A stretch of DNA of 64,000 bases from Escherichia coli O127:H6 str. E2348/69 (lineage in GTDB: Bacteria > Pseudomonadota > Gammaproteobacteria > Enterobacterales > Enterobacteriaceae). Below, one piece after another: positions 2,632 through 47,100 of this stretch. Under the pieces are notes generated by a model. The model was given only the letters and a program-made list of their open reading frames with translations. It was not told the origin of the DNA and made no database searches. Made by a program: the position numbers and the translations under genes. The stretch lies in assembly GCF_000026545.1 (NCBI RefSeq), contig NC_011601.1, one strand, 5' to 3'. How positions within the stretch are numbered: position 1 is the first letter of the stretch; each line of letters opens with the position of its first letter.

Positions 2632-2720
2632 TGTAGGCCTGATAAGACGCTATCAGCGTCGCATCAGGCATCCTGCTCAAATGCCGGATGCGGCGTAAAC
2701 GCCTTATCCTGCCTACAAAT
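2632..2720. repeat. REP/BIME palindromic repeat cluster between yiiM and cpxA
   Basis: Tandem REP-type sequences (TAGGCCTGATAAGACGC...GCATCAGGC; GCCGGATGCGGCGTAAACGCCTTATC). Confidence 0.75.
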
Positions 2721-2727
2721 GCGGAGT

Positions 2728-4101
2728 TTAACTCCGCTTATACAGCGGCAACCAAATCACCAGCCGTAAACCGCCCAGCGGGCTGTCTTCTGCCTTCACC
2801 CAGCCACGATGCTGCTGAATGGCGGTTTCTACAATCGCCAGCCCCAAACCTGTACCGCCAGATTCACGATCGCGTGCTTCATCGGTCCGATAGAATGGAC
2901 GGAAAATCTGTTCGCGATCTTCCGGGCTAACGCCAGGACCATCGTCGTCCACCGTAATGGTGATACCGTCTTTATCTACCGCAAAGCCCACTTCAATCTT
3001 CGTATGGGAATAACGCAGAGCATTACGAACAATGTTTTCCAGCGCACTTTCCAGGGCGTTCGGGTTGCCGTACAGCGGCCACGGCCCAGGTGGGAAGTTA
3101 ACCGTCAACGACTTGCCCATTTGCTCGGCTTCGAACGCCGCGTTATCCAGCACTTCACTCCACAACTGGTTGGCTTTGATGGTCTCGCTAACCAGCGCAT
3201 TTTTCTGCTGATTACGTGACATCACCAACAGATCGTTGATCATGCTGTCCAGACGTTGCGCTTCGGTTTCAATACGCTCCAGTTCCTTGCTTTCACCGCT
3301 ACGACGGCGCAGTAACGCCGTACCCAGTTGCAGACGCGTCAGCGGGGTGCGCAGTTCGTGAGAGATATCAGAAAGTAGACGCTGCTGAGAGGTCATCATG
3401 CGCTCCAGCGCGGTGACCATCTGGTTAAAACTGGCACCGGCGGCAAGGAATTCCTGTGGCCCCGCTTCCAGTTCCGGGTGCTGGCGTAAGTTTCCCTGGG
3501 CAACTTCATCGGCAGCGTTTTTCAGCTTACGCGCCGGTTTTGCCAGACTCCAGGCCAACCACAACAGCAGCGGCGTACTGACCAGCATGGTGACAATCAG
3601 CAGTAATAGCGGGCGGTCAAACAGTAAGTTGATGAAATCGGATTGAGAACTGCTGGCCGGACGAATCAGATAAAGTTGGTAATTATCTTCGCCATCACGC
3701 ACGGAGAACGGACCGACCAGTTCCACGCGGCCATACTTTTTCTTCTGCGGATGATCGGCGTTATCGGCCTGACCAATAAAGTTACGAATGATCTGCATTT
3801 CGCTGCGTTCAGCGCCGATCACGCGGCCTTCGGTGGTCACCAGTAACAAACGCTGTCCTGGCGGTGCCCACTTATCAATCGCCCGGAACAGACGCCGCCA
3901 CCACATTAAATCGTTGGGCGGATCGTTCGCCAGCTCCGCTTCGACATGCTGCTCAATCATCAGACCCTGACGCTGTTCGCTATCCAGAAGCTCGGTCATC
4001 TGGCGTGAATCGAGCTTGGGTAACATCAAAACCAACATCAACACCAGCGCCAGCGTCAGCCAGAAGATGGCGAAGATGCGCGCGGTTAAGCTGCCTATCA
4101 T
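2728..4101 (-). CDS. cpxA: Envelope-stress sensor histidine kinase CpxA
   Basis: 457-aa ORF; two TM segments, HAMP, H-box (SHELRTPLTRL) and ATPase motifs; overlaps cpxR stop by 4 bp. Confidence 0.95.
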   Translation of the reverse strand: MIGSLTARIFAIFWLTLALVLMLVLMLPKLDSRQMTELLDSEQRQGLMIEQHVEAELANDPPNDLMWWRRLFRAIDKWAPPGQRLLLVTTEGRVIGAERSEMQIIRNFIGQADNADHPQKKKYGRVELVGPFSVRDGEDNYQLYLIRPASSSQSDFINLLFDRPLLLLIVTMLVSTPLLLWLAWSLAKPARKLKNAADEVAQGNLRQHPELEAGPQEFLAAGASFNQMVTALERMMTSQQRLLSDISHELRTPLTRLQLGTALLRRRSGESKELERIETEAQRLDSMINDLLVMSRNQQKNALVSETIKANQLWSEVLDNAAFEAEQMGKSLTVNFPPGPWPLYGNPNALESALENIVRNALRYSHTKIEVGFAVDKDGITITVDDDGPGVSPEDREQIFRPFYRTDEARDRESGGTGLGLAIVETAIQQHRGWVKAEDSPLGGLRLVIWLPLYKRS

Positions 4102-44061: not shown

Positions 44062-44248
44062 CTGTTTCGTCCGTGAAAAAATATTCACAGATTCGACCTT
44101 CAGGGCTAACGATTGTTCTGTGGAGAAAATGTCCAGAAGCGGATAAAAAAAACCGAACAAGGTGGAAGTTTCAGATTACTGGCACAGCGTGCCGGATACG
44201 GCGTGATGAACTGCACCCCAAATGTTGGACATAATCTGACATCTGAAG

Positions 44249-44779
44249 GTGCAGTTTATGAAACATTCATTTGAAGTAAAACTTGCCGCTGTAAATCATT
44301 ACCTGGCTGGTCATGCAGGCATCATTTCTACGGCAAAACTCTTTCAACTTTCTCACACCAGCCTCTCACACTGGATTAATCTTTTTCTTCTTCACGGTCC
44401 TCGGGCACTGGATTGCAGACACAAGCGTAGCTATTCTCCTGAAGATAAACTTTGCGTGGTTCTTTATGCTCTCGGGCATTCTGAGTCTCTACCCCGGGTA
44501 GCTGCCCGGTTTAACATTCCCAGCCACAACACGGTTAAAAACTGGATAAAAGGCTACCGCAAATCTGGTAATGAGGCCTTTATCAGGTGCAGGAAGGAGA
44601 AAAGCATGACCCGTTCTGATGATACCCATGAAAACGAGGCAAACATGACGCCGGAAGAGATGAAGAATGAGCTGCGTTATCTTCGCGCAGAAAATGCATA
44701 TCTGAAAGCCATGCAGGAGCATCTTCTGGAAAAAAAGCGCCAGGAGCTGGAGAAAAAACGAAAGTCATCCAGAGCCTGA
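44249..44779 (+). CDS. IS3-family transposase OrfA (HTH DNA-binding subunit)
   Basis: 176-aa ORF with N-terminal HTH and C-terminal leucine-zipper-like region (NELRYLRAENAYLKAMQEHL); architecture resembles IS150 InsJ. Confidence 0.8.
   Translation: MQFMKHSFEVKLAAVNHYLAGHAGIISTAKLFQLSHTSLSHWINLFLLHGPRALDCRHKRSYSPEDKLCVVLYALGHSESLPRVAARFNIPSHNTVKNWIKGYRKSGNEAFIRCRKEKSMTRSDDTHENEANMTPEEMKNELRYLRAENAYLKAMQEHLLEKKRQELEKKRKSSRA
44729..44735 (+). promoter_or_regulatory. Programmed -1 ribosomal frameshift heptamer A AAA AAG of the IS3-family element
   Basis: Heptamer lies in the orfA frame ~45 nt before the orfA stop; the -1 frame is open from here into the OrfB-like sequence. Confidence 0.65.
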
Positions 44780-45321
44780 GGTACGGACACTGCCAGTCTG
44801 ACCTGTTAAAGGCCGCAGGGCTGGCCAGAAGCACGCTGTACTACCAGCTGTCACTGCAGAAGGCTAAGGACAAGTATGCTGATGTGAAACAGCTCATAGC
44901 CTCCATCTTCCATGAACACCGGGGATGTTATGGGTACCGGCGGATCCATTGTGAGCTTCAGAAAAGAGGTCTTAAGTTCAGTGGCAAAACGGTGCGAAAA
45001 CTGATGCAACAGCTCGGCCTGAAGTCTCCTGTGCGCCTGAAGAAATACCGGTCTTACCGGGGAAATATGGGACTCGCTGCAGAAAATATCCTTCAGCGAC
45101 AGTTCAAAGCGGAAGCTCCCTGTGAGAAATGGGTGACAGATATCACCGAATTCAGGGCTGGCGGACAAAAACTGTACCTGTCCCCGATACTTGATTTGTT
45201 TAACGGGGAAATCGTGGCGTGGGAAACGGCCTGCAGGCCTACAGAGGAGCTGGTGAAGCGGATGTTAAATAAGGGGCTGGAAAGCCTTGCTGAAGGGGAG
45301 AAACCGCTGCTCCACAGTGAT
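44729..45321 (+). pseudogene. IS3-family transposase OrfB (DDE integrase core), N-terminal segment interrupted by an IS110-family insertion
   Basis: -1 frame is open from the A AAA AAG slippery site; translation ...YGYRRIHCELQKRG...KWVTDITEF...PLLHSD resembles IS150 InsK and then abruptly diverges at residue D. Confidence 0.75.
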
Positions 45322-46696
45322 AGTAATAATGCCGGTATCAGTTTTTATCATCACTCTGTTTGCTGTTTAACCAGACTGGTGTGATTACTGATGCAGTGAA
45401 GACCTTCCCGCATCCTGACTCACACAGCGATCGACCCTTTGTGTCCTGCCCTGGACCTGTCGGTTGCCGGAAGCGCCTTCATGCGAGGCGTCTCCTCACC
45501 GATGCGCGTGACTCAAGAAGGGCCTGACGGTTTGTCTCGTTACTGTCCTGTCCGGGTTATCTGTCTGGAGATTCAACTCTGTTTCCTCACAGGAGCTCTG
45601 TTATGGCAGGTAAAGTTACGGAAACCGCTGTTGTGGGTGGCGTGGATACACATAAAAATCTGCACGTTGCCGCTGTCGTAGATCAGAACAATAAAGTTCT
45701 GGGGACCCAGTTTTTCTCCACAACACGGCAAGGTTACCGGCAGATGCTGGCATGGATGACTTCGTTTGGGGCATTAAAGCGAATTGGTGTTGAGTGTACA
45801 GGCACCTATGGATCAGGTCTGCTTCGCTATTTACAGAATGCCGGGTTAGACGTTCTTGAGGTGACTGCGCCAGATCGGATGGAGCGACGCAAACGGGGTA
45901 AAAGTGACACGATTGATGCTGAATGTGCCGCTCACGCCGCATTCTCCGGAATAAGAACCGTCACACCCAAAACGCGCAATGGCATGATTGAGTCTCTGCG
46001 GGTATTAAAAACTTGCCGAAAAACAGCAATATCAGCCCGCAGAGTCGCTCTCCAGATTATCCATTCCAATATTATCTCTGCCCCGGATGAATTACGTGAA
46101 CAGCTCAGAAATATGACGCGTATGCAGCTCATCAGGACTCTGGGATCCTGGCGGCCTGATGCCAGTGAATACCGCAATGTTACCAACGTTTATCGTATTT
46201 CATTAAAGTCCCTTGCCCGACGCTATCTCGAGTTACATGACGAAATCGCTGATTTGGATGTCATGATTGCGGCAATTGTCGATGAGCTGGCGCCTGAACT
46301 GATTAAACGTAATGCTATTGGATACGAAAGCGCTTCGCAGTTGCTGATCACGGCAGGAGACAATCCCCAACGATTAAGATCAGAATCAGGTTTTGCGGCA
46401 CTGTGTGGTGTCAGCCCTGTTCCCGTATCTTCAGGAAAAACGAATCGTTATCGACTTAACCGGGGTGGAGATCGTGCTGCAAATAGTGCACTTCACATCA
46501 TTGCCATCGGACGTTTGCGAACTGACGATAAAACGAAGGAATATGTCGCCAGACGAGTAGCGGAAGGGCATACAAAAATGGAAGCAATACGCTGCCTGAA
46601 GCGCTATATCTCACGCGAAGTTTATACATTACTGCGTAATCAAAACAGGCAGATCAACAGCATCCCGATAACGGCTTGACTCTTAGAAGGGCGTCC
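45322..46696 (+). mobile_element. IS110-family insertion sequence (about 1.37 kb) nested inside the IS3-family orfB
   Basis: Boundaries inferred from the exact interruption of the IS3 OrfB reading frame (PLLHSD | QGWHYR); contains a ~280-bp non-coding left end and a single transposase gene; no terminal inverted repeats evident, as is typical for IS110 family. Confidence 0.7.
45603..46679 (+). CDS. IS110-family transposase (DEDD/RuvC-like N-terminal domain plus C-terminal transposase domain)
   Basis: 358-aa ORF MAGKVTETAVVGGVDTHKNLHVAAVVDQNNKVLG...GVECTGTYGSGL...; the VGIDxxK / ECTG motif pattern typical of IS110/IS621-type transposases. Confidence 0.85.
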   Translation: MAGKVTETAVVGGVDTHKNLHVAAVVDQNNKVLGTQFFSTTRQGYRQMLAWMTSFGALKRIGVECTGTYGSGLLRYLQNAGLDVLEVTAPDRMERRKRGKSDTIDAECAAHAAFSGIRTVTPKTRNGMIESLRVLKTCRKTAISARRVALQIIHSNIISAPDELREQLRNMTRMQLIRTLGSWRPDASEYRNVTNVYRISLKSLARRYLELHDEIADLDVMIAAIVDELAPELIKRNAIGYESASQLLITAGDNPQRLRSESGFAALCGVSPVPVSSGKTNRYRLNRGGDRAANSALHIIAIGRLRTDDKTKEYVARRVAEGHTKMEAIRCLKRYISREVYTLLRNQNRQINSIPITA

Positions 46697-47012
<316 letters not shown>

Positions 47013-47100
47013 GTGAACGCCTTATCCGGCCTACAAAAGTACGTAAATTTACTATATTGCAGAGATTGCGTAGGCCTGATAAGCGTAGCGCATCAGGCAA
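47013..47100. repeat. REP/BIME repeat cluster immediately right of the IS insertion (yijF-gldA intergenic)
   Basis: GTGAACGCCTTATCCGGCCTAC...TGCGTAGGCCTGATAAGCGTAGCGCATCAGGCA. Confidence 0.75.

Follow-up and report, generated by a model that had tools for sequence, protein, structure and literature searches.

Positions 44729-44779 of the window (the whole 64,000-nucleotide stretch of Escherichia coli DNA that was analysed) very probably represent IS1397's own cassette for programmed -1 ribosomal frameshifting, and the orfB gene of this IS1397 copy has been split by ISEc21 at the known target of the latter element. According to the proposed mechanism, most of the ribosomes translating orfA would stop at the TGA codon at 44777-44779 and release OrfA (173 aa), and a minority would slip back by one base on A_AAA_AAG (44731-37), where both lysine tRNAs could re-pair, and would then follow the orfB frame; this event is probably stimulated by an AGGAG sequence at 44715-19 and by a 38-nt hairpin at 44741-78. 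In an intact IS1397, the frameshift would yield the 449-aa OrfAB transposase. ISEc21, an element guided by a seekRNA (bridge RNA), has inserted at the codons around the second catalytic Asp (CACAGTGAT/CAAGGATGG), and because it now lies in orfB, translation after the shift would give a protein of 375 aa, ending 20 codons inside ISEc21. The cassette would have stayed intact because the insertion is located 585 nt downstream and is recent, not because of selection. It is thus frameshift biology that is already known and annotated, passively retained in a recently inactivated copy, and its significance is small beyond correct annotation: the annotation should read IS1397 with an ISEc21 insertion, an intact orfA, and a split orfB pseudogene, and no novel recoding site is involved.

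Identity and genomic location of the IS1397 copy

Judged by its sequence, the element at 44207-47012 is IS1397, a member of the IS150 group of the IS3 family. Megablast against 5,426 complete E. coli genomes with RefSeq annotation, from which the names of both IS1397 and ISEc21 were taken, revealed 99.3-99.8% nucleotide identity between the window element and RefSeq-annotated IS1397 copies ('IS3-like element IS1397 family transposase'). Without the ISEc21 insert, the element is 1432 bp in length. Its ends and the immediately surrounding features are as follows.

44191-44204, no strand assigned: left arm of the REP palindromic unit, GCCGGATACGGCGT, 93% complementary to 47017-47030
44203-44206, no strand assigned: left copy of the target-site duplication GTGA, directly adjoining the end of IS1397
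44207-44231, + strand: left inverted repeat of IS1397, TGAACTGCACCCCAAATGTTGGACA, 25 nt
46988-47012, + strand: right inverted repeat of IS1397, 25 nt
47013-47016, no strand assigned: right copy of the target-site duplication GTGA, directly adjoining the end of IS1397
47017-47030, no strand assigned: right arm of the REP palindromic unit, ACGCCTTATCCGGC

The arms of the inverted repeats are 84% complementary to each other and have the form TGAACTG...CAGTTCA, starting with 5'-TG and finishing with CA-3'. The flanks, GCCGGATACGGCGTGA / (GTGA)ACGCCTTATCCGGC, form a split palindrome around the element, which indicates that IS1397 inserted inside a REP palindromic unit; such units are the known insertion target of IS1397 (PMC1525189). 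The neighbouring genes in the window are katG, yijE, yijF, gldA, and fsa, and IS1397 is located between yijF and gldA. This site is occupied by IS1397 in 11 of the 5426 complete E. coli genomes, and the three yijF-gldA copies that were examined, i.e. those of E2348/69, RM14723, and LT903847, are uninterrupted. No composite IS1397::ISEc21 was seen at yijF-gldA in the 5426 genomes.

Organization of orfA and orfB

The element shows the IS3-family layout, with two consecutive overlapping ORFs, the second of which lies in the -1 frame. Pfam domains are split across the two frames, OrfA containing the HTH domains and OrfB the DDE (rve) integrase core, the latter being divided by the insert. Three coding segments were delimited.

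44258-44779, + strand: orfA, 173 aa, containing HTH domains and, C-terminally, a coiled-coil-like segment; stop codon TGA at 44777-44779
44737-45321, + strand: 5' part of orfB, 195 codons read in the -1 frame, the last of which specifies the second catalytic Asp (..PLLHSD)
46696-46980, + strand: 3' remnant of orfB, 94 codons plus TAA, with the catalytic Glu region GNCLDNAVME and Pfam matches to rve_2 and rve_3

OrfA matched HTH_28 (8.8e-17) and HTH_Tnp_1 in Pfam and shares 99% identity with a cluster comprising 2287 E. coli sequences. Read in the orfA frame, 44720-44779 has the sequence CAT CTT CTG GAA AAA AAG CGC CAG GAG CTG GAG AAA AAA CGA AAG TCA TCC AGA GCC TGA. The -1 frame is preceded by a TGA codon at 44668-70 and is open from 44671 through the heptamer to a stop codon at 45382-45384 inside ISEc21; the overlap between the 0 and -1 frames is therefore 106 nt (44671-44776), and orfB has no adequate start of its own within it. 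The product of the -1 frame gave Pfam matches to HTH_21 (9e-18) and, over positions 2-64 of the 102-position profile, to rve (3.3e-11). Alignment with intact copies showed that the 5' part of orfB is joined there directly to the sequence from 46696 onward, and the 3' remnant is 100% identical to the corresponding part of an intact copy (L001, 2670-2986). A promoter scan found no consensus sigma-70 promoter upstream of orfA. Native IS3-family promoters are weak, and the empty scan is therefore uninformative.

These data bear out most of the original prediction, which had described an IS3-family element with a heptamer about 45 nt before the orfA stop, a -1 frame open through the heptamer into OrfB-like sequence, and an orfB interrupted by an IS110 element. 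The element proved to be IS1397 by identity to the RefSeq copies, and 39 nt lie between the heptamer and the orfA stop (46 nt from start to start). The -1 frame, which had been thought free of a stop codon immediately after the heptamer, is indeed open up to 45382-45384, and its OrfB-like nature is reflected in the HTH_21 and rve matches. The IS110 element is a 1374-bp ISEc21, after which orfB resumes at 46696.

The slippery heptamer and its conservation

The shift site itself occupies seven nucleotides.

44731-44737, + strand: slippery heptamer A_AAA_AAG, phased GA[A AAA AAG] in the orfA frame

It is the sole in-phase heptamer of the X_XXY_YYZ type in the 106-nt overlap. The string AAAAAAG was found 32 times in the window on both strands, versus approximately 15 occurrences expected; the bare heptamer is thus common, and its significance therefore rests on phase, overlap position, and conservation. 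In a 1076-column alignment of IS1397 and five relatives with about 55% OrfA identity, 40% of the columns were invariant overall, and the longest invariant run was GGAAAAAAAGCGCC (44728-44741), which spans 14 nt as compared with 8 nt for the next-best run. The block G GAA AAA AAG CGC C was present in the same phase in all six relatives identified in metagenome and genome contigs (53-59% OrfA identity). Two relatives contain a -1-frame stop codon two codons upstream of the heptamer, and the shift site is therefore confined. A_AA.A_AA.G ranks as one of the three -1 motifs with the highest efficiency in E. coli, and A_AA.A_AA.G and A_AA.A_AA.A together account for 72% of the heptamers of the IS1 and IS3 families (PMC4066793).

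For intact copies at yijF-gldA, the RefSeq annotation is a joined CDS bearing the remark 'programmed frameshift', and a slip at the heptamer in intact IS1397 gives a 449-aa OrfAB, in accordance with the length of this joined CDS. Between the window copy and the intact RM14723 copy, which resides at the same locus, only three differences were found in 1432 bp, none of them in 44589-45275. The frameshift cassette is therefore the same as that in a copy taken to be functional, in agreement with the earlier proposal that the frameshift window is intact and that the fusion could still be initiated.

The string might also be read as a chance succession of A-rich Glu-Lys-Lys codons in a lysine-rich tail, with no programmed frameshift. 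The 32 occurrences of AAAAAAG in the window, the lysine-rich coiled coil encoded by the region, and a second A-run 16 nt downstream are consistent with this reading, to which we nevertheless give almost no credence: the heptamer is in the exact phase and unique in the overlap, it lies in a 14-nt invariant block though only 40% of the alignment columns are invariant, the overlap offers orfB no adequate start, and both the IS3-family architecture and the programmed-frameshift call in RefSeq point to recoding. Phase, invariance, and uniqueness in the overlap effectively refute a chance origin, leaving the programmed frameshift cassette as the preferred reading.

Relative to the E2348/69 copy, the window copy shows a cluster of differences (44725, 44771, 44783, GCC at 44812-14, and 44817). 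We considered whether these could be compensatory structural changes and rejected the idea; among them, only 44771 touches a predicted pair (U-A versus U-G), and the cluster is better explained by the existence of two IS1397 haplotypes and a mosaic copy.

Candidate stimulators of frameshifting

Potential stimulators were evaluated by a set of empirical rules based on 271 members of the IS3 family (Sharma et al., PMC4066793). Two candidates flank the heptamer.

44715-44719, + strand: SD-like AGGAG, candidate stimulator upstream of the heptamer
44741-44778, + strand: candidate stimulatory hairpin, 38 nt, composed of CAGG/CCUG, a 2x2 internal loop, and CUGGA(G)/(C)UCCAG

The distance from the putative SD-like sequence to the heptamer is within the range of 6-17 nt for which experimental support exists (PMC4066793). 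AGGAG is kept in five of the six relatives, and this conservation is ambiguous because AGGAG also encodes Q-E of OrfA. The hairpin begins at the fourth nucleotide past the heptamer and extends with its 3' arm into the orfA stop codon. Under the same rules, a stimulatory hairpin is 17-140 nt long, starts 4-10 nt after the motif, has a G-C closing pair and at least three further pairs, and reaches a stability (dG) of at least 7.6 kcal/mol (PMC4066793). The hairpin at 44741-44778, with a predicted dG of -13.1 kcal/mol (0.345 kcal/mol/nt), is the sole structure that conforms to them; its ddG/nt is 0.16, as against the floor of 0.09 for known IS stimulators, and among the 38-nt windows of the left part of IS1397, its folding places it in the best 0.7%. 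Its start at +4 is the lower limit of the accepted spacing, and its stability is moderate.

When the hairpin pairing was projected on the relatives, 80% of the cells were paired, versus 25-48% in slid controls. The lower stem is 100% pairable in the eight sequences compared, with one-sided variation only (A-U to G-U), and most relatives have a disrupted upper stem; covariation in these eight sequences was not above that in shuffled controls. RNAalifold applied to IS1397 and six relatives returned a consensus that was weak (-10 kcal/mol) and incurred a covariation penalty, and we therefore claim no conserved structure. Folding of the whole region against shuffled sequences was unremarkable (z = -1.0 and -1.26). 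Since the region is double-coding, the conservation of the flanks is confounded. A distant blastn search of a plasmid collection retrieved only near-identical E. coli copies, of no use for covariation.

A pseudoknot between the hairpin loop and downstream sequence was sought by eye and rejected: only 4-5 bp matches exist (GUCA/UGAC in IS1397 and CAGGU/ACCUG in two relatives), and they are not conserved. An Rfam scan at a permissive E-value detected no frameshift-element or bridge-RNA family; a sub-threshold match to ES036, located in the BIME, was its only result. The stem-loop or pseudoknot whose presence had been suggested as a check of the original prediction is accordingly represented by a rule-conforming hairpin, for which neither covariation above that in shuffled controls nor a conserved pseudoknot was seen. 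We regard the hairpin as a reasonable candidate and not as an established stimulator.

The same features bear on the possibility that RNA polymerase, slipping during transcription of the A7 run at 44730-44736, is the main source of the fusion. Such a run of seven A residues is a homopolymer, AAAAAAA is under-represented in genes, possibly owing to transcriptional slippage (PMC4066793), and some IS3-family members do use this mechanism, e.g. IS1447 on A9T (PMC6211511). We nonetheless consider it most improbable here, as the conserved unit is not the run but the phased A_AAA_AAG, whose 3' G and fixed phase are the signature of tRNA re-pairing, and as the SD-like element and the hairpin are placed at ribosomal spacing. 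In addition, IS elements with known transcriptional slippage have longer runs. Ribosomal slippage at A_AAA_AAG thus remains the reading that we favour.

Insertion of ISEc21 into orfB

The insert and its components were delimited as follows.

45322-46695, + strand: ISEc21 (IS110 family), 1374 bp, with bounds taken from the alignment to intact IS1397 (E2348/69, yijF-gldA)
45322-45602, + strand: non-coding region of ISEc21, 281 nt, upstream of the transposase gene
45603-46679, + strand: ISEc21 transposase gene, encoding an intact DEDD transposase of 358 aa

The insert shares 99.7-99.85% identity with RefSeq-named ISEc21 ('IS110-like element ISEc21 family transposase'), and its transposase matched the Pfam families DEDD_Tnp_IS110 and, C-terminally, Transposase_20 (6.5e-20 and 2.2e-12). 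Insertion occurred without target duplication. At the junction, CACAGTGAT/ISEc21/CAAGGATGG, orfB is split between GAT (Asp) and CAA (Gln) within H-S-D/Q-G, so that ISEc21 sits directly after the codon for the second catalytic Asp. It has been shown experimentally that a seekRNA from the non-coding region guides ISEc21 (Siddiquee et al. 2024, Nat Commun, PMC11187229), and the published target comprises the codons surrounding the DDE motif's second D in IS3-family transposases (PMC11187229). In the window copy, CAGTGA (45394) and CATCCT (45411) in the non-coding region match the left and right flanks, respectively, each match being only 6 nt long. The position of the break is fully explained because ISEc21 inserted at its published RNA-specified target. 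The insertion into IS1397 is another instance of this targeting and not a new behaviour; it is a clear-cut natural case of insertion by an RNA-guided IS110-family element at the conserved HSD/QG codons of an IS3-family transposase.

Predicted truncated fusion and composite elements in other genomes

Beyond the junction, the -1 frame runs on for a short distance.

45322-45384, + strand: -1-frame read-through into ISEc21, 20 codons (SNNAGISFYHHSVCCLTRLV) plus stop

The predicted product of shifted ribosomes would thus consist of 160 residues of OrfA, 195 of OrfB (...PLLHSD), and 20 specified by the left end of ISEc21, i.e. 375 aa in total. The peptide across the shift would be EHLLEKKAPGAGEK, and that across the IS1397/ISEc21 junction PLLHSDSNNAGISFYHH / PLLHSDSNNAGISFYHHSVCCLTR. 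This fusion, expected to be catalytically dead, would keep the HTH regions, the coiled-coil segment, HTH_21, and positions 2-64 of the 102 positions of the rve profile, as well as two of the three catalytic residues, and would lack the catalytic Glu and the C-terminal 94 residues, in line with the earlier expectation of a product truncated after the N-terminal part of the integrase core. From its domain content, it would qualify as a truncated transposase in which the end-binding and multimerisation domains are present and the catalytic domain is incomplete. With the break inside the RNase H-like fold and 20 unrelated residues after it, the protein would probably misfold and be degraded. The N-terminal 160 aa are common to the fusion and OrfA.

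The IS1397/ISEc21 junction was found in 13 of the 5426 genomes, as compared with 1715 that contain the uninterrupted target. At least four other composite loci exist: yaeF-nlpE, downstream of a 5S rRNA gene, yjbB-pepE, and nhoA-yddE. The IS1397 sequences differ among the composite loci, and one locus contains a 92% variant of ISEc21, which points to repeated targeted insertions. The ISEc21-derived tail SNNAGISFYHHSVCCLTRLV also occurs at two other composite loci. Two of the five independent composite loci have a 5-bp deletion as a result of which the fusion stops 41 codons past the slip; at one of the two, orfA is also broken by an indel. The genome LT903847 contains both an intact IS1397 left junction at yijF and a composite at yjbB-pepE.

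The original prediction had further suggested that the truncated product might inhibit transposition. In this scenario, the 375-aa OrfAB would act in trans as a dominant-negative inhibitor that binds the inverted repeats or enters mixed multimers and lowers the transposition of IS1397. The parts that would be needed, namely both HTH regions, the coiled-coil segment, and HTH_21, are retained without the catalytic Glu, and the coexistence of intact and interrupted IS1397 copies in LT903847 would provide the setting. A precedent comes from IS911, where OrfAB[1-149], which has no DDE domain, showed better inverted-repeat binding and formation of synaptic complexes than full-length OrfAB (PMC2909936), and where transposition is reported to be downregulated by truncated forms of the transposase (Gueguen et al. 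2006, as cited in PMC6211511). Several points weigh against such a role, however. The loss of the frame in two of five composites, one of which has lost orfA too, argues against selection for the 375-aa product. The disrupted RNase H-like fold with its 20 foreign residues would probably misfold, OrfA would be more abundant as the main product of every copy, and the composite is rare (13 of 5426 genomes versus 1715 with the uninterrupted target). An inhibitory function is thus plausible only by analogy with IS911, and we consider it unlikely; the comparison among composites does not speak for selection of the truncated product. The original prediction is accordingly confirmed as an observation and partly supported as an interpretation, and the passive retention of the cassette in a recently inactivated IS1397 remains our preferred account. 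The 375-aa OrfAB* nonetheless represents a defined construct for testing whether interrupted copies damp IS1397 activity.

A broader conjecture, which we hold to be highly unlikely, is that the guide-specified break point of ISEc21, directly behind the second catalytic Asp, systematically makes its IS3-family hosts produce an OrfAB that depends on frameshifting, is catalytically dead, binds the ends, and dominantly represses the intact copies that remain. If it were true, ISEc21 would be hyperparasitic, silencing its host IS family genome-wide besides inactivating one copy.

Comparison with known systems

The window copy resembles other IS1397 copies in its length, 25-nt inverted repeats, 4-bp target duplication, position within a palindromic-unit loop, and orfA and orfB joined by A_AAA_AAG, and differs from the uninterrupted copies in the presence of ISEc21 inside orfB. 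The ISEc21 copy is likewise similar to that described by Siddiquee et al. (PMC11187229) in having the non-coding region with target-matching sequences upstream of the transposase gene; the example hosts in that study were ISCfr6, ISEc92, and ISEc93, whereas the host in the window is IS1397.

With the frameshift signals of IS911, IS150, and dnaX, IS1397 shares the same heptamer, an upstream SD-like sequence, and a downstream hairpin beginning 4 nt after the motif, but its hairpin is unrelated to theirs in sequence and is without covariation support. This hairpin is also weaker (0.345 kcal/mol/nt) than the IS3-family average (0.452 kcal/mol/nt). Like the predicted 375-aa fusion, OrfAB[1-149] and OrfAB* of IS911 comprise the N-terminal DNA-binding and multimerisation part and lack part or all of the catalytic domain. 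The IS911 forms end before the catalytic domain, whereas the IS1397 fusion would end in the middle of the RNase H-like fold and carry 20 foreign residues.

Apparent mosaic structure of the IS1397 copy

The IS1397 copy in the window, in which orfB is split by ISEc21, looks mosaic at the sequence level. On the left, both the flank and the junction match E2348/69 with 100% identity. A tract of ~230 bp around the frameshift site (44588-44817, compared with the intact copies of E2348/69 and RM14723) represents the other IS1397 haplotype, marked by T44588, T44725, A44771, A44783, and an additional GCC at 44812-44814; at position 45276, the sequence returns to the E2348/69 match. This haplotype is also present in RM14723 and in two composites (IS1397::ISEc21). 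The placement of a tract of the other haplotype between an E2348/69-like left flank and position 45276 suggests gene conversion between IS1397 copies as the source of the mosaic. The window copy shares the GCC codon, which lies in the N-terminal region of OrfB, with all relatives of ~55% OrfA identity; it is absent from the intact IS1397 copies of E2348/69 (position 2163 of the yijF-gldA copy, L001), and this shorter allele specifies an OrfAB of 448 aa.

Just to the right of IS1397, in REP/BIME sequence, a sub-threshold Rfam match to the ES036 (CssrF) sRNA was detected at 47035-47077 (22.9 bits vs a gathering score of 37.6; E = 0.31); the similarity probably arose by chance or reflects the REP sequence.

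Composites and ISEc21 at other loci

Two composites that occupy separate sites in the chromosome, one at yaeF-nlpE and the other downstream of a 5S rRNA gene, carry an identical 5-bp deletion in orfB (L002, 2629 region, and L003, 2627 region), corresponding to window positions 44821-44825. Mobilization in trans, of a defective IS1397 or of the complete 2.8-kb composite, may account for this, or the allele may have been spread by recombination. A further composite, L013 (Escherichia coli 10035776-3, nhoA-yddE), contains an ISEc21 variant (2633-4006) that is 92.4% identical, with 104 mismatches and no gaps, and occupies exactly the same IS1397 position. Junction matches of 87.5%, similar to this variant, were found in four genomes.

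The left end of ISEc21 with only ~14 nt of IS1397 flank (query positions 27-80; window 45308-45361) matched far more records than did the complete IS1397 junction, among them plasmids and features whose annotation names other IS3-family transposases. These short-flank matches are consistent with the targeting by ISEc21 of the conserved HSD|QG codons, i.e. the insertion point after the second catalytic Asp, in several IS3-family hosts.

The frameshift region

Five E. coli protein entries (P0039, P0042, P0047, P0048, and P0050) share 92-100% identity with the last ~25-29% of OrfA and also include an HTH_21 domain. They resemble ORFs predicted through the frameshift site and may derive from gene calls in the -1 frame or from a changed length of the A-run in particular copies or assemblies.

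In the segment 44713-44761, CAGGAGC..CTGGAAAAAAAGCGC and then CAGGAGCTGGAGAAAAAACGA resemble the two units of an imperfect tandem repeat, an arrangement that places a second AGGAG at 44742-44746, directly after the heptamer (A_AAA_AAG, 44731-44737) and within the 5' arm of the candidate hairpin. The loop of this hairpin (44753-44764) contains more in-phase slippery tetramers, A_AAA (44755-44758) and CGA_AAG (44759-44764). Because neither motif was conserved in the relatives compared, both are probably incidental. A slip at either motif would likewise lead into the open orfB frame, and CGA_AAG is of the hexanucleotide type used by IS1222.
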